Origin: an uncultured Eubacterium sp.
GTDB taxonomy: Bacteria > Bacillota > Clostridia > Lachnospirales > Lachnospiraceae
Direction of reading: 5' to 3'
Assembly (NCBI GenBank): GCA_947088865.1
Contig: CAMUHY010000019.1
Location: forward strand, 2,185-66,184
Length of the DNA: 64,000 nucleotides
How positions within the stretch are numbered: position 1 is the first letter of the stretch; the number at the start of each line of letters is the position of its first letter. A model generated the notes under the pieces. That model was not told the DNA's origin and did not search any database. It saw nothing but the letters and a program-made list of their open reading frames with translations. Positions 44,403 to 55,627 of the stretch are shown here, piece by piece. The translations under genes and the position numbers were made by a program.

Positions 44403-45092
44403 CTAATCAGCTGTTAAAGGAAAAAGATAACGAGATTGTGAATATTGTACCTCTTCTAACGTATCATTATATGGTCTCCGACTTCTCCAATTCAATGTAA
44501 GCTGTGCTGATCCATCATCTAATATTTTCAGTTTTGGGTCATTCACACGTATCCAGCTTCCCTTAATCTTACTGCCATCTTCTAAAATAAGCGGTATAAG
44601 ATTTCTTGCTGCTCGTATTTTTGTAACCACCATAAGACCAAGTGAATATGCATCCTCTTCTTTTTCATGAAAAATCTTAATATACCAAGAATACTCCATA
44701 GCATAAGTAAGGAATGTTTCTCCATCTGTGTCAATTTCTGACATAGGAAAATAAATCGATGGAACAACAAAATTTGATGGAATTTTCCAATAATAGGGAA
44801 CTACTTTTGTCTGGTCAATCAAAAATTTCATAATACTTGCTATTTCTTGCTCAAGCTCAAGCATATTCCACACATTTCCATTACTGCCCTTTTCAAAGCT
44901 GGCAAGAAGTAATTTGCTGTCCATTACTTTCCGTCGCACGATTTCATCTTGTAATATTCTTAAAAATTCATATCCAAGTCCCTCTAAAAATCGTTCAAAC
45001 TCTTTGCGAAATTCACCTTTTGCTGCGCGCTTCACACTTCCAAAAAACTTCTTAAATTCCGACATATCAACTTCAACATATCTACTGCTCAT
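44403..45092 (-). pseudogene. Apparent in-frame fusion of an HK97 gp10-like protein N-terminus and a tail-terminator-like protein, with an aberrant C-terminus
   Basis: The N-half (MSSRYVEVDM..LLASF..GNVW) is joined at NMLELEQEIASI to a second domain that looks like a separate gene start. It ends in QSRYLFPLTAD next to non-phage DNA. Confidence 0.55.
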
Positions 45093-45460
45093 AATGCCTT
45101 TTGCCCTCCTACCTTTTTGATATAAACAAATATATGGTGGTCTCTAACATTAACTGGAAGCTCTGCTGTATACTCAAGCCCTGTCATACAATCTACAATT
45201 TTGTCATTAAGACGAATATCTGTACCTGCTGGCAAAGTAAGCTTTATTTTAGCGTCCATAAGATTTGCTGGAGCTGTCTGTGTAATTGTAATGGTCTGTG
45301 AACGTACTCCAAAATGACACTTTTGACTGCTGATGTCTGGCTCATCTGAATACGAAAAAGATAAGGCAGCAGATAATCCCCAACCTAGCCCAGCTTGCTT
45401 TTCTCTATTATGGTAAATATCACAAAGATGATTTAAAAGACTTCCTAAACTCATAATCAC
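45089..45460 (-). CDS. Phage head-tail adaptor/closure protein (YqbH/XkdH, DUF3599-like)
   Basis: LLNHLCDIYH, DIRLNDKIVD and VRDHHI; position after the connector gene. Confidence 0.7.
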   Translation of the reverse strand: MIMSLGSLLNHLCDIYHNREKQAGLGWGLSAALSFSYSDEPDISSQKCHFGVRSQTITITQTAPANLMDAKIKLTLPAGTDIRLNDKIVDCMTGLEYTAELPVNVRDHHIFVYIKKVGGQKAL

Positions 45461-45463
45461 CTC

Positions 45464-45847
45464 CTAGAGCTTTCTCATGCGGAGTGTTACTCCATTTCTT
45501 GGCTCTGCTTGAACAAAATCATCAAGCAATGCCGCAAGGTCTAATGCTTCTATGCTGATTTGATTTGTTTCTTTGGTATAACTGTAATCGTCAAAAGTTT
45601 CTGATTTAACCTCTTTTGCTGCCATACTTGCATTATGTCCATATGCCTCTGCAAGTATCAATACTGCCGTTTTTACTGCTGCTGGTATTTCCTTTTTATC
45701 TTTAAACAAATTATGTGTATATGTAATTACATATTGTTCAGCTCTCGCAATATCCACTGTGAGCCGTGTGTCGCTGCGCTTCTGTACTGCTGGTATCTCG
45801 GAGTATTCCTTAACCTCCTCTGGCGTTACCCACGGTCTTTCCGCCAT
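45464..45847 (-). CDS. Phage head-tail connector (YqbG, DUF3199-like)
   Basis: WVTPEEVKEYS and KSETFDDYSYT; GGAGG RBS before MAERP at 45847. Confidence 0.72.
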   Translation of the reverse strand: MAERPWVTPEEVKEYSEIPAVQKRSDTRLTVDIARAEQYVITYTHNLFKDKKEIPAAVKTAVLILAEAYGHNASMAAKEVKSETFDDYSYTKETNQISIEALDLAALLDDFVQAEPRNGVTLRMRKL

Positions 45848-45863
45848 ATCGTACCTCCTCCGC

Positions 45864-46229
45864 TTAATACTCCTGTAATTCCTGCATAGTAGGACTACCA
45901 TAGTCTACCTCGTTCTTGGTTTCCTTATCGCTCAGCTCCTTCTTAAGTTTTGTAATTATGTCAGCCTTTTTAGAAATTCCTTTAAGACTGACATTGTGAT
46001 AGGCTGCGTAGCTTTCCAGTTCCGACACCGTCATTTCTTCCAGTGTCTTTCCATGTTTGTCATCCTCTGGGTCTGCTGGGATTTCTTCATTGTGAAGTAA
46101 TTTAAAATAACCAGTAGCTACCGCTGCATCTGCGGTAGTCTTGTCCTCAACAAACACGTCCGGTTTTTCTTTCGTGGCTGAAACAATGCCAGTATAGGAG
46201 AGAGATTTTAACAGTCGCAAGTGATACAT
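45864..46229 (-). CDS. YqbF-like phage protein with a C-terminal HeH/Rho-N-like domain
   Basis: LRLLKSLSYTG..GYF N-terminus and MTVSELESYAA..KKADII motif. Confidence 0.68.
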   Translation of the reverse strand: MYHLRLLKSLSYTGIVSATKEKPDVFVEDKTTADAAVATGYFKLLHNEEIPADPEDDKHGKTLEEMTVSELESYAAYHNVSLKGISKKADIITKLKKELSDKETKNEVDYGSPTMQELQEY

Positions 46230-46247: not shown

Positions 46248-47300
46248 TTATTTCAGTCCTGTAATAATTGCCGTTGCATCCAGTTCCTCGATAATTGGGT
46301 CATAGTCAAGGTGGGTAACATAAAAACGCTTATCCATCATAACTGCCTCTTTGCCTTCAGTAGTCTTACGAATCTGCACATTATAGGTATTTACAACAAT
46401 AAGATTTTTAGGGTCCGTTAAAAGAATAGTACTGTCATCTAAAGATGGACATTCAATTGCAGGAATACGTGCAGGGGCTTTGTAAATACTTTCAGGTACC
46501 GCACCACCTGCGTTTACAACCTTATTCAATAAAAATAGTTCCCACTCCTGCGTTCTGCGAGGAGACATAAGCCAACGAAGTTTGCCATTATTGTACTTAT
46601 TAGGAAGTTGCGCCAATGTCTTGTAGAATAAATCAAGACTCATATTTGTTTCACTGGAAGCATCATATACATGACCACCATTGCTAATCTGCTTAATCCA
46701 ACCATCATTAATTTTTAAGAAATCAGCATCGCTTTGTGTGCCAAATTCTTCAACTTCACTTTCATTCCAAGCTCCTGCTGTATGAGCTGTTGTAAATTTA
46801 TAGAGTTTATCATTATAGGCAACTTCATCCCCTTTAGCATATGTATCGGTAGTACTGAACGTCGGAATTTTTGCCATATTCTCGTCACCGTTAAGATACA
46901 AATCTTCAAGGTCAATTCCAAGCTGTGTTGTCATAAGGTCAGTAATAATCTTTTCAAGGTTTTGCCCTTCAATATTCTCACGCAAAGTTTCTTCTGTAAT
47001 TTCCCATGGCAGCCGTACAGCAGTAGTGCTATACTCAATCTGACTTGTATTTACGCCTGCTCTATAACCATCATCCGTATTTTCAGTCTTTTTACGAAGA
47101 ATACGACGACCAATGCCAATTTTATCAATTTCACCCGTTTTTGCTGTACGCATTTCGTGACGAATAAGGCTGCCTAAATTTGTAGTCTCAAAAGTTTGCT
47201 GAATAAATTTTCGAGCTTGCTCTGGATTAAGTAAACCAGAAGTTAAAGCTCCTGTGGAAATAGCTGCCTTTCGGATAATAGTGCTGTTATCAATTCCCAT
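46248..47300 (-). CDS. Phage major capsid protein (XkdG/YqbE-like) with an internal insertion
   Basis: GLLNPEQARKF, KIGIGRRILR, LPWEITEETLRENIEG and DLYLNGD; position after the XkdF-like gene. Confidence 0.88.
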   Translation of the reverse strand: MGIDNSTIIRKAAISTGALTSGLLNPEQARKFIQQTFETTNLGSLIRHEMRTAKTGEIDKIGIGRRILRKKTENTDDGYRAGVNTSQIEYSTTAVRLPWEITEETLRENIEGQNLEKIITDLMTTQLGIDLEDLYLNGDENMAKIPTFSTTDTYAKGDEVAYNDKLYKFTTAHTAGAWNESEVEEFGTQSDADFLKINDGWIKQISNGGHVYDASSETNMSLDLFYKTLAQLPNKYNNGKLRWLMSPRRTQEWELFLLNKVVNAGGAVPESIYKAPARIPAIECPSLDDSTILLTDPKNLIVVNTYNVQIRKTTEGKEAVMMDKRFYVTHLDYDPIIEELDATAIITGLK

Positions 47301-47328: not shown

Positions 47329-48669
47329 TTAGAGAATACCATGCAGATAATGCGTATCACCTGCTGATTTTTCTATGCTTCCATTAAGGTTACTAGGAAG
47401 TCCTTTGCTCTTTAATACAGGGTCAATCGCTTTTGTTACTGCTGTGGTAATCATTTCTTGTACTTGTTCTATGGTGACTTGTGATTCTTGCTGTGGCTCA
47501 AGTGCCTTTGTTATCGCCTCCTCAACCATTTTTTCCACACTTTCTGGCGTAATTTCTGTTGTAATAGCACTTTTACCTTCTGTCTTTTCAACTACTTCTG
47601 TACTATTTTGTGCCTTTTGTATGGCACTTTGCTGTGTACTAGTGCCAATCGCTTTTTCAATGGCAGCAGACACTATCTGCTCAATATCTTGCTTTGTCAC
47701 TTCTTTATCCTCCTTATCCATTTTTGATTTTTTGCTTTCATTCTCTTCCTGCTCATCAAACTCTTTAAGGAATGCTCCTAAACTCTCATAAATTCCGTTT
47801 AATATTTCCTTATTTTTGCTACTTATTTTCTTTCCTGCCTTTTCAACTGGTCTGTTCGTTTGAATAGCTTTTATAACACTTTCTTTACCAGTAAGAATAC
47901 TAGTGATAATCTGATTAAACTCTTCAAGACACTCACGTACCTTATCTTCATTTGTTTCATATTGCCAGCGTCCAGTAATATTGTCATATTTATATAAAAT
48001 CTCCTCAAGAGAATTAAAAGCATTCCAAAAGAGTGTACCTTTGCTACGTTCTTCATAAAGTTCCGACATAGCGCCTTTTTCCACTACATTGACGCCCAAG
48101 GCTGCTGCCAACTGTTTTAACAATCCTTTCTTTTCTTTAGTTTCTTGCTTACTCACATTGTCCAATTCAATATCCTCCTCGCTATAATTTCCAAGTCCAC
48201 CCATACTAAACCCTGTGATGTCGCCTTTTTCAATGCCTTTCCATACACTCTCATCAGTCACTTCCACCGTCATAAGCCATGTTCCTTTTTGTATTGCTTC
48301 TCCATCAATCTCAAAATCTGCCTTTGCAATCCAATTTTCTACAACAGTTGCACCATCTAATGGCTCAAAACTATGTTGTAAATCAACCTTATCGCCATTC
48401 TTAGCAAACCAGTACGCTGCTTTTGTAATCTCCTCCTCTGTCATAAAATTACCATGACTATCTTCTTCCATAGGTTCATACACAATTCCTGTGACATAAT
48501 GATTTTCTGTATCAGCCTTAATAATTCTGCCATAGGTAGTAAATGTTGCCTTACCACTTGCTTCTTTCTTCAAAAGGAACTGCCGCTTATTAGCTGCTTT
48601 ATCCACAAGGCTCACAAATTGAATTTTTGCGTCTGTAATTTCATATGCTTTTTTCAAACCTTTCTTCAT
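47329..48669 (-). CDS. XkdF-like putative prohead protease/scaffold
   Basis: VSLVDKAANKRQF, VTGIVYEP..DSHG..M..EEI.KAAYWF, GTWLM and GFSMGG. Confidence 0.8.
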   Translation of the reverse strand: MKKGLKKAYEITDAKIQFVSLVDKAANKRQFLLKKEASGKATFTTYGRIIKADTENHYVTGIVYEPMEEDSHGNFMTEEEITKAAYWFAKNGDKVDLQHSFEPLDGATVVENWIAKADFEIDGEAIQKGTWLMTVEVTDESVWKGIEKGDITGFSMGGLGNYSEEDIELDNVSKQETKEKKGLLKQLAAALGVNVVEKGAMSELYEERSKGTLFWNAFNSLEEILYKYDNITGRWQYETNEDKVRECLEEFNQIITSILTGKESVIKAIQTNRPVEKAGKKISSKNKEILNGIYESLGAFLKEFDEQEENESKKSKMDKEDKEVTKQDIEQIVSAAIEKAIGTSTQQSAIQKAQNSTEVVEKTEGKSAITTEITPESVEKMVEEAITKALEPQQESQVTIEQVQEMITTAVTKAIDPVLKSKGLPSNLNGSIEKSAGDTHYLHGIL

Positions 48670-48784: not shown

Positions 48785-49222
48785 TTATAAACCAAGAATT
48801 TGAATCTTTTTCTTATCAAAATCTTCTTGTGTTATAACGCCTTCATCTAAAAGTTGTTTTAATTGTCTTAAACTATCCATATTAAGGTCATCAACAGATT
48901 GAACTGTTTTTGATATTTCATTTTCTACAATAACTTTTTCAATTGCCTCTTTAAATTTTATGGCTTCCTCATACTGTGGTTTTCTAAAGCAAATTGTATT
49001 TATATCTGTTGCATAATGAGCTACATTTGCAACAGAAGAATAGGTTTTTGCTCCAAAAACTTGAATATGTATACACCCCGCAGCAGTAAAAACAGGCTTT
49101 TTTAATATCACAGAAACAATATCCGAAATTTTTATTATTCTTCCTAAATCCTTTTTTCCCTTTTTAATTTTTATGATACCATCACCTATTTCAATTTCTC
49201 CATCATAACCTATAAATTTCAT
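48785..49222 (-). CDS. Moron: PH-like domain with a C-terminal SHOCT domain
   Basis: C-terminal LRQLKQLLDEGVITQEDFDKKKIQIL. Confidence 0.78.
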   Translation of the reverse strand: MKFIGYDGEIEIGDGIIKIKKGKKDLGRIIKISDIVSVILKKPVFTAAGCIHIQVFGAKTYSSVANVAHYATDINTICFRKPQYEEAIKFKEAIEKVIVENEISKTVQSVDDLNMDSLRQLKQLLDEGVITQEDFDKKKIQILGL

Positions 49223-49327
49223 AATCAGCTTTACTCCTTTTTAGTTTCTTTACTATATATTAACAGAAATATTTTTTATAAAACAATAAAAAGTAAAATA
49301 ACAGTCCTGTATTTTTATTATTCAATT

Positions 49328-50020
49328 TTATGAATTACAACGTGTACATGGAGAATACCCATTCTTAATTAATTGTTCTCTTGTTCCGAATCTCTCTAAC
49401 ACATTTGCAGTTGTAGCATTTTTTATAATAGAACAATTTTTTTTATGAAACTTTTTTGTATTTACATTTACCATATACCACTCTAACTTTTGTTTCGTTT
49501 CTTTCTCATTAGATGCAACTTTATCTAATTTTTCCCAATCTATGCTATCGAAATGTTTTAATACATCTTCACTTGTACAATCTTTTTTTCCCATACCAGC
49601 AGCTGCCACAAATAAAAATCCTGTTTTTCCATCATTAGAGCGCCAATTTACAATTTTATCTTTTATCGAATCTCCTTTTTCATCTTTTTCATTGTAGCCA
49701 ATTGAAATATTTTTTAATATGTAACCATTTTTTTCAACTAATTCCAAAACTATAGGACAAAGAATATCAATAACTTTTGGAATATCATCAATACGATGAA
49801 CATATGCTGAAACATCTACTCCATTGTATGTTGTAATAAAAATACTATTTTTCCCATCATAAAGTAGTCCTACTTGGTCATCTGGATATTTGTCTATTAT
49901 TTCCTTTTTAAATTTTTCTTCTGGTGGTACGGCACTTATATTTCTTTTTTGATTATTTCCACAAGCTATTAGTGACATAATGAAAATCATCACAATAATA
50001 AAGCAAAAGTTTCTTTTCAT
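49328..50020 (-). CDS. Moron: lipoprotein with a C-terminal Ada-like metal-binding domain
   Basis: Lipobox SLIAC; C-terminal NTKKFHKKNC..GYSPCTRC. Confidence 0.72.
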   Translation of the reverse strand: MKRNFCFIIVMIFIMSLIACGNNQKRNISAVPPEEKFKKEIIDKYPDDQVGLLYDGKNSIFITTYNGVDVSAYVHRIDDIPKVIDILCPIVLELVEKNGYILKNISIGYNEKDEKGDSIKDKIVNWRSNDGKTGFLFVAAAGMGKKDCTSEDVLKHFDSIDWEKLDKVASNEKETKQKLEWYMVNVNTKKFHKKNCSIIKNATTANVLERFGTREQLIKNGYSPCTRCNS

Positions 50021-50937: not shown

Positions 50938-51903
50938 CTATATCTCTGACCTTGCTCTATTTCTTGCATCTAATTCTTTCTCCCAATCATCATCCATTTC
51001 ATCAATGGCTTGCTGCTGTAATCGCTGCCTTTCTTCAAGAGACAAGCCTAGTATTTCCTCGCTAACAATAGGCTGTTCTATACAATGACAATTTATTCTT
51101 TCTTCTGGTGGTAAAATAGTATCACCTGGAAACATTGGATTATAGATACTGCCATCTGCTCCAATAAGTTCAAAAGGTTCATTTACAGGTACCCGCTGTC
51201 CATCCATGTCAACATGGTTCTGTCGTGGCTCGTTTCTATATTCTCCTGTGTGCTTCCACATTTTTTCGCTAACTACTGGACTTTGCATAAATGCCTCTTG
51301 CTGTGCTGCTCTATGTGCTGTTAAAACCTCTGTAACAGCAACTCTCCTAGCCTTGTAATATTCATTTCGTATGCCACTGTCAAGAATTTCATGAGTAAAC
51401 TCTGCTATACTGCTGCCCTCTTTCAGTCCTTTTTCAAGTATACGTTCAATTTCTTTGTGGCTGTTTAGCTGCATAATTTCTCCAAGTTCTTTACTCCAAC
51501 CTTCTACCCATGCCATTGTCCTCTCTGACACTTGTGTCAATTTAAGGTCTTTATCTGTCTGCGCTATATAATAACCAATAAATTCTGGCATAAATTTATT
51601 AAGTTTTTCTTTAAACACTTTAATAAGTTTGACTTTTGTTGTATTATCCAATTTTACTTTTGACCAAACATCCTCTGCAAAAGTTTCAAGGTCAATAGCC
51701 TTTTCTACCTCTGCAATAATCTCGTCCGTTTCGTCTAAAAGTGCCTCCGCCACACCATCCTCAATTTCTTGTATATATTTAATGGTCTTTTCAGACTTTA
51801 TATAGCCCTGTGCTTCAAGCTCATCAGAAAGGTTATCGTCTGCCTTTTTAATATATACATCAATCGCCTTTATAAGGGAATTGCAATGTATACACATAAT
51901 CAT
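50938..51903 (-). CDS. Phage minor head protein (Mu gpF/SPP1 gp7-like)
   Basis: ARRVAVTE, KMWKHTG..PRQNHVDMDGQ and EERINCHC. Confidence 0.85.
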   Translation of the reverse strand: MIMCIHCNSLIKAIDVYIKKADDNLSDELEAQGYIKSEKTIKYIQEIEDGVAEALLDETDEIIAEVEKAIDLETFAEDVWSKVKLDNTTKVKLIKVFKEKLNKFMPEFIGYYIAQTDKDLKLTQVSERTMAWVEGWSKELGEIMQLNSHKEIERILEKGLKEGSSIAEFTHEILDSGIRNEYYKARRVAVTEVLTAHRAAQQEAFMQSPVVSEKMWKHTGEYRNEPRQNHVDMDGQRVPVNEPFELIGADGSIYNPMFPGDTILPPEERINCHCIEQPIVSEEILGLSLEERQRLQQQAIDEMDDDWEKELDARNRARSEI

Positions 51904-53465
51904 TCCCCCTTATCCATTTTAAGTAAAAGATTCTTAACCTCTTTCATCACAGCTACAACTGTATCATCATGTTTTCCTGCTGCCTTTTCAATCTGTTTTT
52001 GTAAACTCATAGTAAGCTGGTTAAGGTCAAAGCCCATTTTATTCGTCTGTGATTTGCTATAAGCAAGTGGGACATTTCCCCATTCTTCTGGATAATCTTC
52101 TGCTATTTCTCCATATGCCTCAAAAATAATTTGCTTTGCTTTATTTGGTGTTAAACCACCTGCATTATTACAAACCGTTAAAATTTTATAAAGGTCGTCC
52201 ATATTAGTAATATCTGGTTCCAAAAAATATGCCTCAACATACTTAAATTGATAACTATTCAAAAGGCGATTATTAATTGCCCATGCAAGACTTTTACGCT
52301 CTGGCTGAAATACCTGTTCCTCTGTTACCTCCATCGCCATTTGTGCTGTAGCTCTGTTAAAATCAGTTGTATATCCAACATAAAGGTCTGGAAGCTGAAA
52401 AGAAGATTGCACTTTTCGACGATTATTGTCCAGATAATCTTGAAAAAGTTCATCTTTCTGGAGAATATTAGCAAGGTCTTTTATCTCAATCTCTGGCTTT
52501 TCTGATTGGTCAAAATCTATACGTCCATCTGTGCTTTCTGTTTCCAATATAATAAATGCGTGCTGCCCAGCTGCTCCCTTAATATCGTTCATATATTGCT
52601 GAAGTTTATCAAAACTTTCATTGGTTAATGTACCACCTTTAATCATAATCATAAGCGGCGTATGCCTACCATTTTCAAAATAATTATTATTAAGACTTTC
52701 TGCTTTCCTACTGCCATCTACTCCAAGTACCTGCCCCATCCAACGTACTTCACCATATGGCTCTATACCTATAGAAAATTCCATAATCTCATTAGCCTGC
52801 TGTGCTAAATTAAGAGTTTCACCTTCTTCAAGATATTTGCCATCTGTGCTATTCATAATACGAGGGTCGCCAAATTCACGGAAATATACGGTCTTTCCAC
52901 CTATTATTTCCTGCTTATATTTACAATAACGCTTTTTGCGTTCAAGCTGTTGTCCATGATGATAATATGTCGAGGGAATATATGGTTCAAGCGGCTTTGT
53001 CTTTTGAATAGATGATGTATCCTTAATAAAATCAATCTGTACAACCTCTCCTGCAATATTTCGTATTACTTCAAGATAAGCTATACCATATGTTTCTCGT
53101 GCTTCTATAATATTCTCAAACACTTCTTTAGTATCCTGTTCTGTATTCAATAATTCAATAATTCTCTCAGCTTTGCTAAATTCTTCTTTCATTTCTTGTG
53201 TTTCTTCCATGTCATCAATATATCTCACACCAATGCCAAATCCAGCAATATTATTTTTATAAGCTCTGATACATTGGGGAAGAATAGTACTATTTTTTAC
53301 TAAATTATGAAGCCCCTTAAAATCATTTGATGGTTTTATCCAATCTTCTGCATTATAAATATCATTTTCTGATATCTGTATAGAAGTATCTGCTTTTTCA
53401 ATAGGAACTTGCTGTCCTTGTTCTTTGATTATTCGTACTTGCATTCCACATTTCGATTTATTCAT
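51900..53465 (-). CDS. Phage portal protein (PBSX/XkdE-like)
   Basis: ILPQCIRAYKNNIAGFG, YGEVRW and NNNYFENGRHTP; follows the terminase. Confidence 0.88.
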   Translation of the reverse strand: MNKSKCGMQVRIIKEQGQQVPIEKADTSIQISENDIYNAEDWIKPSNDFKGLHNLVKNSTILPQCIRAYKNNIAGFGIGVRYIDDMEETQEMKEEFSKAERIIELLNTEQDTKEVFENIIEARETYGIAYLEVIRNIAGEVVQIDFIKDTSSIQKTKPLEPYIPSTYYHHGQQLERKKRYCKYKQEIIGGKTVYFREFGDPRIMNSTDGKYLEEGETLNLAQQANEIMEFSIGIEPYGEVRWMGQVLGVDGSRKAESLNNNYFENGRHTPLMIMIKGGTLTNESFDKLQQYMNDIKGAAGQHAFIILETESTDGRIDFDQSEKPEIEIKDLANILQKDELFQDYLDNNRRKVQSSFQLPDLYVGYTTDFNRATAQMAMEVTEEQVFQPERKSLAWAINNRLLNSYQFKYVEAYFLEPDITNMDDLYKILTVCNNAGGLTPNKAKQIIFEAYGEIAEDYPEEWGNVPLAYSKSQTNKMGFDLNQLTMSLQKQIEKAAGKHDDTVVAVMKEVKNLLLKMDKGE

Positions 53466-54903
53466 TCTTTCTCACCTTCTTCCTTCTTGGTGGTTTTACT
53501 GGTAAACAAAGAAGCAACACACAGTCAGCCTCATCTGGAGAAGGCAATCCTCTTTTCTTTACTGCACCCTTACTTTCTATCCTGATTTTACTTGCTTCTG
53601 TTAATTCATACTTTCGCCCTGAAAGCTGTGCTACAAGGTCATCATCATCTGGAAGTATTAATTCTACTGGCTTTTTGTTTCCCTCCTCATCAAAAGGTTG
53701 TAACAATTTTTTAACTACTGCCATCATATATGTAGTACTGTCATGGTAATACTTGTGCTTTATACGCTGACCAAAAATTATTGGATAAACCTCCAGCCAC
53801 CAAAACCGCTCTGGATTATTCCGTTTTATCTGCCGCAAGCGGTCTACCACACCGCCACCCACACCACCATCATCTACTTTGACTGGGATAGGACTATCTA
53901 TTTCTGGTTCAAGCCTATATCTGCGTACTAAAATTTCACCTAATAGGATAATATCATCTGCCGTTTTCATAGTGTCCTGCCCTTGCCGTTTCTTATAAAA
54001 CTCTGCTTTCTCGTCTATCTTGTATCCGATTACCGTTTTGTCATCACCAAAACGTGCAACATCACAAGAAATATGGATTAAATTAGGAGTTTTTCGAGGT
54101 GAAAATTCTGTCATAATAGAATTTTCTATAAGTGACAGCGGAATAAATATATCATCTTCCTGTTTTGGAAATTCTCCAAAAACACGAACCAATACAACAT
54201 TGCTATCTCTGCCATATTTTCGTATTAAAACGTCAATATTTTCTTTATTCGTTCTTAAGCTATCCATAGAGGATACGGTATGACATTTATAAAGAACTCT
54301 GTCTGAATTAAATGCATCAAAAAATGTGCCAGATGTCCTTGTTGGATTCCCGCACATTAATAATTTATTATTCGCGCCGGACAATGTACCAAGTATTGCC
54401 TCCATAATAGGGTCCGCAACACCGGAAGCCTCATCTACAATAAACAACATATTATCCTCATGGAAGCCCTGCATATTTTCTGGTTTTGTAGCCGTTCTTG
54501 CTACGGCAAACCAGCGCTTCTCATTGCCAACCAGATAAATATAAGTCTTTGTCCATTTAAGAATTTTTGAAAGCAAAGGAGATTTACTCATCCATTTACT
54601 AACTTCGGACCATAACACATCATGTAATTGTTGCTTTGTTGGTGCAGTTGCCACAATTCTTGGATAAGGATAACAACAAAGAAACCATAATAAAGTCACA
54701 GCCTCTAAACCTGTTTTTCCAACACCTTGCCCAGACTTAATTGCAACCTTTGCATTTTCTGCCAAATCCATTAATGCTGCCTGCTGCCATTCGTCAGGTT
54801 CAAACAACAAGACTTCTCTAGCAAATAAAACAGGATTCTTGCGATATTGTGGTATTCTCTGTTGAAAAAATTGTTTCCGTAAAATGTGTAAATCCTTATT
54901 CAT
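53458..54903 (-). CDS. Phage terminase large subunit
   Basis: SGQGVGKT (Walker A-like), FIVDEASG, GNPT, DVARFGDD and SPDEAD nuclease motif. Confidence 0.92.
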   Translation of the reverse strand: MNKDLHILRKQFFQQRIPQYRKNPVLFAREVLLFEPDEWQQAALMDLAENAKVAIKSGQGVGKTGLEAVTLLWFLCCYPYPRIVATAPTKQQLHDVLWSEVSKWMSKSPLLSKILKWTKTYIYLVGNEKRWFAVARTATKPENMQGFHEDNMLFIVDEASGVADPIMEAILGTLSGANNKLLMCGNPTRTSGTFFDAFNSDRVLYKCHTVSSMDSLRTNKENIDVLIRKYGRDSNVVLVRVFGEFPKQEDDIFIPLSLIENSIMTEFSPRKTPNLIHISCDVARFGDDKTVIGYKIDEKAEFYKKRQGQDTMKTADDIILLGEILVRRYRLEPEIDSPIPVKVDDGGVGGGVVDRLRQIKRNNPERFWWLEVYPIIFGQRIKHKYYHDSTTYMMAVVKKLLQPFDEEGNKKPVELILPDDDDLVAQLSGRKYELTEASKIRIESKGAVKKRGLPSPDEADCVLLLCLPVKPPRRKKVRKNE

Positions 54904-55627
54904 TGCTTTCTACCTCTTTTCCTAAAACAGCCATCATCCAATTATCAACCAGTTCATCACCCATGTTTTCACTATCTAGCTTTGCCTTTTCTGCTCGATA
55001 TTTTGATAATACTTCAATAGCTTTCGTTCTTGCTTTTTGCACTTTTGTAAGCTCTGCTTCTAATGCCATAATACTATTCATAACCGATTTTGTATTTGTA
55101 ATCGTTGTTTCTGTAACCTTTTTACCAACACATTTACCATCTGCATTAATTGAATTTTTTACATTCTTTTTTTTGGATACAGTTTCTACAGCAAGTCCAT
55201 GATTTTCTTCCTCTATTTTTTTATACCTTTTAATACTTTTCATAAACCTGTGTTCTCGTATAGAAAACATTTGCAACTGCATGATTAATTGCTGCTCTTC
55301 CTTATCATCCATACTATCAACTAAAATCTGTTCTTCCTTATCAAGAGTATCCCAATATACTTTAGAATAAGCTCCATGCTTTTGTGCATTCTTATTTCGT
55401 TGTTGCCCACCCTTTGATTTTTTTTGCAACGTTGCATTTTTTTTACTATCTTTTTTTGCAACGTTGCATTTATTTTTTTTTAACTTATTGCCCCAATCAT
55501 ACCTATTTTTCCAACTGCGAACAGTACTATCTGAAACCCCTAATCTTTCTGCAATTTCTACCATTGTTAAGCCATCATTAAATAACTTTTCGGCTTCAAT
55601 CATTTTGTCGCTTGGCGCTCTTGGCAT
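54896..55627 (-). CDS. Phage terminase small subunit
   Basis: N-terminal HTH (IAERLGVSDSTVRSWKNRYDW) and GGQQRNKNAQKHGAYS. Confidence 0.88.
   Translation of the reverse strand: MPRAPSDKMIEAEKLFNDGLTMVEIAERLGVSDSTVRSWKNRYDWGNKLKKNKCNVAKKDSKKNATLQKKSKGGQQRNKNAQKHGAYSKVYWDTLDKEEQILVDSMDDKEEQQLIMQLQMFSIREHRFMKSIKRYKKIEEENHGLAVETVSKKKNVKNSINADGKCVGKKVTETTITNTKSVMNSIMALEAELTKVQKARTKAIEVLSKYRAEKAKLDSENMGDELVDNWMMAVLGKEVESNE
55425..55468. repeat. Tandem palindromes inside terS (candidate pac/TerS-binding sites)
   Basis: TGCAACGTTGCA at 55425-55436 and 55457-55468, separated by A/T tracts. Confidence 0.6.

Follow-up and report, generated by a model that had tools for sequence, protein, structure and literature searches.

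Introduction

Phage heads are usually seen as inert containers; the exceptions known best are decorations of Ig-like type, which have been linked to mucus adherence, and T4's I-domain, which is structural. Capsid proteins of the HK97 fold with extra domains are known already, as are Ig-like capsid domains linked to mucus adherence. In this study we analyzed a stretch of 64,000 nucleotides from an uncultured Eubacterium sp. (Lachnospiraceae; assembly GCA_947088865.1, contig CAMUHY010000019.1, positions 2,185 to 66,184), referred to as the window, with the focus on the gene at 46248-47300 of its minus strand, which encodes the major capsid protein (MCP) of a prophage. A carbohydrate-binding module of the CBM5/12 type is inserted in one loop of this protein. 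This lectin-type module can be recognized by sequence, and in a widespread group of phages of gut Clostridia each capsid subunit carries it in cis. The insert had been pointed out in an earlier reading of the same DNA made without database searches, here called the original prediction.

The closest precedent, which the original prediction left unconsidered, is the I-domain of T4 gp23/gp24. This domain has been called 'chitin-binding-like' (Fokine et al. 2005, in the wording of the papers that cite it, PMC3185693 and PMC11664910) and is described as a capsomer stabilizer, not a lectin (PMC3185693; PMC11664910; PMC9546572). Both systems have an HK97-fold MCP with a small beta-domain of chitin-binding type in cis, one per subunit, on the outer surface, where the exposure of the domain studied here is predicted from topology. 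The T4 domain is set into the E-loop through long linkers, whereas the insert described here follows the spine helix, precedes the A-domain and has very short helical linkers. It also passes the cut-off of the Pfam family PF02839, while the T4 domain is 'chitin-binding-like' by the description in the papers (PMC3185693, PMC11664910). Finally, the T4 domain is an integral clamp of the capsomer; the insert is an optional cassette, absent from otherwise identical capsid proteins.

Ig-like decoration of capsids is known from T4 Hoc, from the C-terminal BIG2 domain of phi29 gp8 and from BACON/Ig adhesins of gut phages, and is understood by the model of bacteriophage adherence to mucus (PMC9853417, PMC13370021). 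Like the module studied here, these are accessory, dispensable and multivalent domains of the head surface, and they are thought to give weak adherence to glycans or mucus. They are, however, separate proteins or terminal fusions, whereas the module has the CBM5/12 fold and lies inside a loop of the MCP. The coat proteins of P22, Sf6 and CUS-3 likewise contain an extra folded, surface-exposed domain within the HK97 fold. The I-domain of P22 has ~120 amino acids (aa), lies within the A-domain and contributes to folding, size determination and stability (PMC11664910; PMC6775164); unlike the present insert, it is not a recognizable carbohydrate-binding module.

Modules of the same Pfam family, with the same three-stranded fold of ~45 aa and the pattern Y..GD.V.Y...Y...HT...W, occur in chitinases and deacetylases, such as the chitin-binding domain (ChBD) of ChiA1 (1ED7), ChiB, ChiC (2D49) and the chitin oligosaccharide deacetylase (COD) of Vibrio (4NZ1). 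There they are terminal modules of secreted enzymes that bind crystalline chitin, whereas here the module is internal to a shell protein and its first and last Trp are replaced by Phe or Ile. CBM5/12 modules of phage tail fibers, in 7-7-1, in Milano and in metagenomic proteins with 3-19 repeats, are the best matches of the capsid module in both structure and sequence. Those modules sit on tails, usually as tandem arrays in trimeric fibers, in contrast to the single copy per capsid subunit found here.

No description of a CBM5/12 module at the G-loop of an MCP at the sequence level, or of its presence/absence polymorphism, was found in the open literature. CBM5, CBM12 and chitin are unmentioned in a review of carbohydrate-interacting proteins of gut phages (PMC9853417), and a 2026 paper on gut-phage adhesins (PMC13370021) gives no match for 'CBM' or 'chitin'.

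Results and Discussion

Identification of the capsid protein and its inserted module

The open reading frame (ORF) at 46248-47300 (minus strand, 350 aa) encodes a major capsid protein with the HK97 fold, and the phage is a PBSX/XkdG-like myophage. The family PHROG 1623 ('virion structural protein, head and packaging') matches the protein with E = 2e-87 in two stretches, as expected if the family profile is interrupted by an insert. An AlphaFold2 (AF2) model of the full protein, built on 101 homologues, reached a mean predicted local distance difference test score (pLDDT) of 84.3 and a predicted template modeling score (pTM) of 0.78. Foldseek matched this model, at a probability of 1.00 and with E values from 3e-15 to 1e-10, to the capsid proteins of phiRSA1, P2/P4 (gpN), HK97 and D3. 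A fold search of BFVD gave matches named 'major capsid protein' and revealed no close twin in architecture. NCBIfam yielded no match to the 350-aa protein, and a PDB sequence search with its full length returned noise only (Csm3, E = 0.4) and sub-threshold CBM matches. Distant members of the family match Pfam Phage_capsid and Phage_cap_P2. The annotation 'major capsid protein' is given to many homologues in Streptomyces phages (30% identity) and also to a 65%-identical homologue in Dulem virus 37, a complete, circular myophage of 53.8 kb.

The gene is flanked by an XkdF-type protease/scaffold gene on one side and by head-tail connector genes on the other, and this synteny, together with the fold and the homologues annotated as MCP in isolated phages, bears out the original prediction of a major capsid protein and rules out that the ORF is not a capsid protein. 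The placement in the family of PBSX XkdG and skin YqbE, also proposed there, agrees with the PBSX-type synteny and with homologues in Bacillaceae, the comparison being made through these two features. Module-less homologues with 53-58% identity are found in Bacillus badius, Domibacillus, Gracilibacillus and other genera of Bacillaceae type.

By sequence and predicted fold, residues 144-186 of this protein are a true CBM5/12 module. The module extends from K144 to F186 (46743-46871, minus strand) within a variable loop of aa 141-190 (46731-46880, minus strand), which is 50 aa long here and lies between the spine helix H113-137 and the start of the A-domain. Searched with the whole protein, Pfam PF02839 (CBM_5_12) matches aa 148-183 (46752-46859) over profile positions 2-39 of 44, with 34.7 bits against a gathering cut-off of 26.2 and E = 1.9e-8; the excised module alone gives E = 5.6e-10, and the same family is precomputed on most close homologues. 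The resemblance to CBM5/12 in the original prediction is thus far beyond chance in a profile comparison. The peptide quoted there, KIPTF...VEEF, matches residues 144-186 of the minus-strand product exactly. Its flanks, DLYLNGD and DFLKINDGWIK, were also given correctly; ENMA and GTQSDA separate them from the module. Two details need correction: the coordinates 46736-46878 are a few bases too wide and out of frame, and the quoted string has 43 aa instead of about 48.

A profile built from 41 capsid modules found the CBM12 of Vibrio COD (E = 7e-6) and the ChBD of Bacillus circulans ChiA1 (E = 1e-3). Alignment to the former keeps Y154, G157, V160, Y162, Y167, H173-T174 and W178, and the signature W/F..Y..G..V.Y...Y...HT...W is retained. 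We take the His-Thr pair and the Trp to be the binding determinants of the ChiA1 domain (H681/T682/W687), to which H173/T174/W178 presumably correspond. Modeled alone with AF2, the module has pLDDT 81; inside the full model it reaches 92-96, the highest confidence in the protein. The best Foldseek matches of the lone module are tail fibers of Agrobacterium phage 7-7-1 (9RKV) and the receptor-binding complex of Milano (8FQC), with 25-36% identity and a root-mean-square deviation (rmsd) of 1.0-1.7 A. They are followed by S. marcescens ChiB, the ChBD of S. griseus ChiC (2D49), a Pyrococcus ChBD and Vibrio COD, with rmsd 1.5-1.9 A over 44-45 aa and TMq 0.65-0.69. T4 gp23/gp24 do not appear in the 50 best structural matches. 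A chance motif is ruled out by the Pfam score and the fold match.

Insertion and exchange of the module

Among the 120 best homologues, the module is present in 107, a 7-aa loop in 10 and a 19-aa acidic loop in 4. Alignment with the module-less relatives shows a clean gap of 43 aa between ...LYLNGDE.. and ..D.DFLKINDGW, with flanks that are 90-93% identical. The wider family comprises 1510 matches at E <= 1e-3, and loop lengths were measured in 90 representatives, most of which have 2-7 residues. Other lengths follow the clades: ~20 aa in one, 50 aa with the CBM in the clade of the query, and ~80-100 aa of unrelated sequence in another; a single protein has 182 aa. The gap in the relatives and the short loops in most of the family confirm that the segment interrupts the capsid sequence, as originally proposed. 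That the segment is a conserved part of the HK97 fold is ruled out, most homologues being without it.

The most informative comparison is that of two capsid proteins, P0003 with the module and P0088 without it. Outside the loop, K196Y is their only difference, and P0088 carries NTETTDPDH in place of the module. At the DNA level the two contigs show a replacement with sharp borders, and the sequence on either side of it is 95-99% identical. The sole difference in the body, at residue 196 (codon 46713-46715 in the window), lies two residues beyond the loop; it could be part of the exchanged cassette or reflect an adjustment of local packing.

A tree was constructed from the body of the protein only, and module-less forms appear in it at three separate places inside the module-bearing group, with 3 changes against 13.7 expected from shuffles. 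Support at these forks is modest, and the starred branches alone are compatible with a single change or origin. The shell evidently needs no compensating change to carry or lose the module, as follows from the identical body with and without it and from the placement in the tree. As judged from these sequence comparisons, the module is an exchangeable, autonomous cassette that is unneeded for assembly.

The same loop receives other material elsewhere in the family. A second clade (P0162, P0163, P0164, P0174, P0184, P0186, P0195, P0197, P0198, P0203, P0217 and P0238) has a different insert of ~80-100 aa at exactly this loop, with the consensus ..GFP..S.AG.L.ID.E.I.Y.....TF..C.RG..GTT.AAH..G..VTW..HPL. 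Pfam and PDB sequence searches did not recognize this insert. PHROGs relates it to repeats in giant proteins of the baseplate wedge, the tail and the virion structure (phrog_2885, E = 2e-10; phrog_1101; phrog_4406), and the capsid loop seems to have captured a tail-type module for a second time here. Separately, the MCP of Dulem virus 37 (P0121, L001 7244-8344) has ~16 extra residues in the E-loop region (..ENVDANADGSVPTIDPATGQITGYRA..) compared with the window protein, which form a second variable surface element. One further protein of 435 aa (P0124) joins an HMGL-like N-terminus of pyruvate carboxyltransferase type to the C-terminal two thirds of a module-bearing capsid protein, and is probably a prophage truncation junction or an artifact of gene calling or assembly.

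Conservation and distribution of the module

The 107 carriers span ~74-99% overall identity to the query. F148, Y167, F169 and H173 are invariant in them, Y154 and G157 are conserved in 99%, G176 in 98%, A175, A177 and W178 in 97% and D158 in 93%, and many other positions of the module vary freely. A rough Nei-Gojobori estimate on 18 coding sequences gave a ratio of nonsynonymous to synonymous rates (dN/dS) of ~0.27 in the module, compared with ~0.16 in the body, values that are approximate with synonymous sites near saturation (pS ~0.75). At the protein level the module evolves ~1.7 times faster than the body, yet it is clearly under purifying selection.

The distribution was counted in reference genomes, with one genome per species. 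The module is present in 15 of 80 related loci, all 15 in gut-derived genomes, binned or isolated, and mostly of Clostridia. Carriers include Lachnospiraceae, Oscillospiraceae, Agathobacter, Faecalibacterium, Jingyaoa, Monoglobus and comparable genomes of gut origin. The two carriers assigned to Saccharibacteria or Bacteroidales are probably phage contigs placed in the wrong bin. An MCP with the module is also found in myophages that look complete, with genes for sheath, tube and tape measure, namely Dulem virus 37 and the phage at locus L003.

Likely donors and other accessory domains

An exhaustive search of representative sequences with the module alone found large proteins with 3-19 tandem copies of CBM5/12 at 41-51% identity. 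Very large metagenomic proteins that consist mostly of such repeats are P0126 (1568 aa, 19 matched stretches), P0139, P0149, P0156, P0157 (2326 aa) and P0168. Pfam detects only CBM_5_12 repeats in the tandem-repeat proteins, plus Fibritin_C and DUF1565 in one, and the parts outside the repeats match tail fiber, minor tail and neck-whisker families in PHROGs. Tail-fiber-type proteins are likely the donor pool of the module, since its nearest sequence relatives are tandem arrays in fiber-like proteins with tail PHROG matches. A hidden Markov model of the module, applied to the window and to the first 28 kb of Dulem virus 37, found no further copy, so that no donor copy within the phage was seen there. 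In one fiber-like protein (P0216), a CBM5/12 repeat at aa 389-420 has a further match, with E = 9e-8, to the 'head protein' family phrog_939 of 126 aa, which hints that small stand-alone head proteins with a CBM5/12 module exist.

Two members of the same MCP family without a loop insert, P0123 (414 aa) and P0230 (478 aa), have at their C-terminus either a Cadherin-like beta-sandwich (PF12733) or an Ig-like domain of the Big_5 type (PF13205), both of them accessory domains classically associated with adhesion. This family hence displays accessory domains in at least two ways, the Ig-like C-terminal fusions being a feature of these two proteins and not of the window protein.

Position of the module on the shell

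The secondary structure of the model runs from the N-arm through the E-loop strands, the spine helix H113-137 and a short helix at 140-144 to the module, which is followed by a helix at 189-195 and the A-domain elements. The strands of the module are at 159-162, 165-169 and 183-188. In the capsid protein of P74-26 the order is spine helix, G-loop (166-188) and A-domain (from 192), and the G-loop touches both an external decoration protein and the E-loop of the neighbor (PMC6775164). In T4, the external I-domain lies close to the neighboring subunit's G-loop (PMC9546572). By topology, the insertion would therefore take the position equivalent to the G-loop, on the outer face of the shell. Display on the outer surface is a reasonable expectation, because the position after the spine helix is that of the G-loop, which in solved capsids contacts decoration proteins and the neighbor's E-loop (PMC6775164; PMC9546572).

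Putative function of the module

We propose that the module is a putative glycan adhesin, multivalent and presented in cis by the capsid, and we give this proposal an even chance of being correct. In this view, the loop after the spine helix in the capsid protein of a temperate myophage of gut Clostridia would have taken up a CBM5/12 module. Every subunit would carry one module, which would place one copy per subunit on the head, or ~415 copies per head if T=7, a triangulation number that we infer from the ~54-kb genome of a relative. The conserved aromatic face of His173/Trp178 could then provide binding of low affinity and high avidity. Candidate ligands are glycans of N-acetylglucosamine type or other beta-linked glycans, as in host cell-wall polysaccharide, peptidoglycan, gut mucin or particulate glycans. 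Such binding might hold virions near susceptible cells and slow their diffusion away from host walls, mucus and particles. This proposal is favored by the CBM signature, the tail-fiber relatives, the optional nature of the cassette, the Cadherin-like and Big_5 domains in the same family and the restriction to gut phages.

Several points weigh against it. Glycan binding by a capsid-borne CBM5/12 is putative, being read from sequence and model. In the capsid modules, Phe or Ile stands in place of the first and the last canonical Trp (F148 and F186 here), and the conserved residues also define the CBM5/12 fold, so conservation alone is no proof of a ligand site. The module and both linkers are predicted very confidently (pLDDT 92-96), which suggests rigid docking on the shell rather than a free tether. 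The G-loop adjoins the E-loop of the neighbor and, by analogy with the T4 I-domain, could also be the place for a stabilizing clamp (PMC9546572). Lastly, the local copy belongs to a tail-less prophage and hence may never reach a virion.

This last point leads to another alternative, which is that the local copy is a relic: a prophage without tail and lysis modules, whose capsid and module have no current function in the host. We regard it as rather probable for this copy. Phage genes end at 44403 and are followed by TetR, beta-lactamase-like, Agr-like and other non-phage genes (down to ~42458), whereas complete relatives continue into sheath, tube and tape-measure genes. Every head gene is nevertheless still an intact ORF, a 99%-identical protein recurs on many contigs of up to 176 kb, and head modules without a tail can still serve, for example in capsid-forming islands or with tail genes elsewhere. 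The relic state concerns the local copy only and is compatible with any functional reading for the family.

The main rival of glycan adhesion at the level of the family is a role as capsid cement, in which the module would lie on the neighboring subunit, on or beside its E-loop, and reinforce the capsomer, with the CBM fold used for protein-protein contact. We consider it unlikely. The T4 precedent, in which a chitin-binding-like I-domain interlocks subunits, involves insertion in the E-loop, a different site, and T4 gp23/gp24 fall outside the top 50 structural matches of the module while tail-fiber and chitinase domains fall inside; the nearest relatives in sequence are tail-fiber repeat arrays. 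The G-loop is a known inter-subunit and decoration contact, the module and its linkers are predicted to be rigid (pLDDT 92-96), and a separate decoration-protein gene was not recognized in the head modules of the window and of Dulem virus 37, all of which would fit a cement. A body that, K196Y aside, is the same whether or not the module is present has, however, no co-evolved docking surface. Moreover, the module was apparently lost or replaced more than once among close relatives, and the same loop takes quite different cassettes of 7 to 182 aa.

That the module is instead a tolerated passenger, gained as a self-folding unit by a permissive loop through illegitimate or homologous recombination with a fiber gene and either harmless or of some non-binding benefit such as surface masking, would suit a loop that is a hot spot for many unrelated inserts, a module that is dispensable and its ~1.7 times faster protein evolution, but is improbable given the clear purifying selection (dN/dS ~0.27), the conservation of about six signature residues including H173 and W178 at >= 97% in the 107 carriers, and the retention of the module across phages in at least 15 gut-derived genomes.

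Returning to a glycan adhesin in cis, a broader proposal is that the loop after the spine helix of XkdG-type capsids is a general plug-in display site, fed with receptor-binding modules of tail fibers by recombination. This is a tentative idea, possible though doubtful. The cassettes observed to date are the CBM5/12 module, a different module of ~85 aa in another clade that recurs in giant baseplate/tail proteins, and inserts of ~20 aa and 182 aa in other members of the family. If true, the head would be a second organ of host or habitat recognition with a valency of several hundred, and swapping of the cassette would retune sticking to the host wall or gut mucus with the tail untouched. The main value of the finding lies in the natural isogenic plus/minus pair and in the evidence that the loop is a hot spot for display. 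The pair of module-plus and module-minus capsids is a clean handle on adsorption, on retention by mucus or particles and on capsid stability. The loop itself looks naturally validated as permissive for ~45-180 residues on an HK97-type shell, which would be useful for phage display and nanoparticle engineering.

Gene neighborhood in the window

The head module has the order small terminase, large terminase, portal, Mu-F-like minor head protein, two inserted morons, XkdF-type protease/scaffold, MCP and connector genes, and the coordinates given in this paragraph refer to the minus strand. The terminase genes, portal and Mu-F-like minor head protein, which make up the rest of the head and packaging module, occupy 50938-55627. 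Directly upstream of the MCP gene, at 47329-48669, lies the XkdF-type fusion of prohead protease and scaffold (PF14550 Peptidase_S78_2, E = 3e-33). Directly downstream, at 45864-46229, a small Rho_N/HeH-like protein with a weak match to PF07498 is encoded, a neighbor that is kept in relatives; Dulem virus 37 has a 'HeH/LEM domain protein' at the matching position. Next are a head-tail connector (DUF3199 / gp6-like, 45464-45901) and an XkdH/YqbH-like head completion protein (DUF3599, 45089-45460), the latter domain being annotated 'xkdH' in Dulem virus 37. The last phage ORF, at 44403-45092, encodes 229 aa, of which only aa 81-214 match PHROG 5756, and the prophage ends here. Beyond 44403, the window has no sheath, tube, baseplate, lysis or other tail-module genes.

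The two morons, at 48785-50020, are non-structural genes, a lipoprotein-like ORF of 230 aa and a SHOCT-domain gene. They split the head operon between the Mu-F-like and protease/scaffold genes and have no counterpart at the same position in Dulem virus 37 or L003. The same head synteny is otherwise found in both of these relatives, which go on with HK97-gp10-like, sheath, tube and tape-measure genes. Dulem virus 37 also possesses a diversity-generating retroelement (Avd and reverse transcriptase) near its tail genes.

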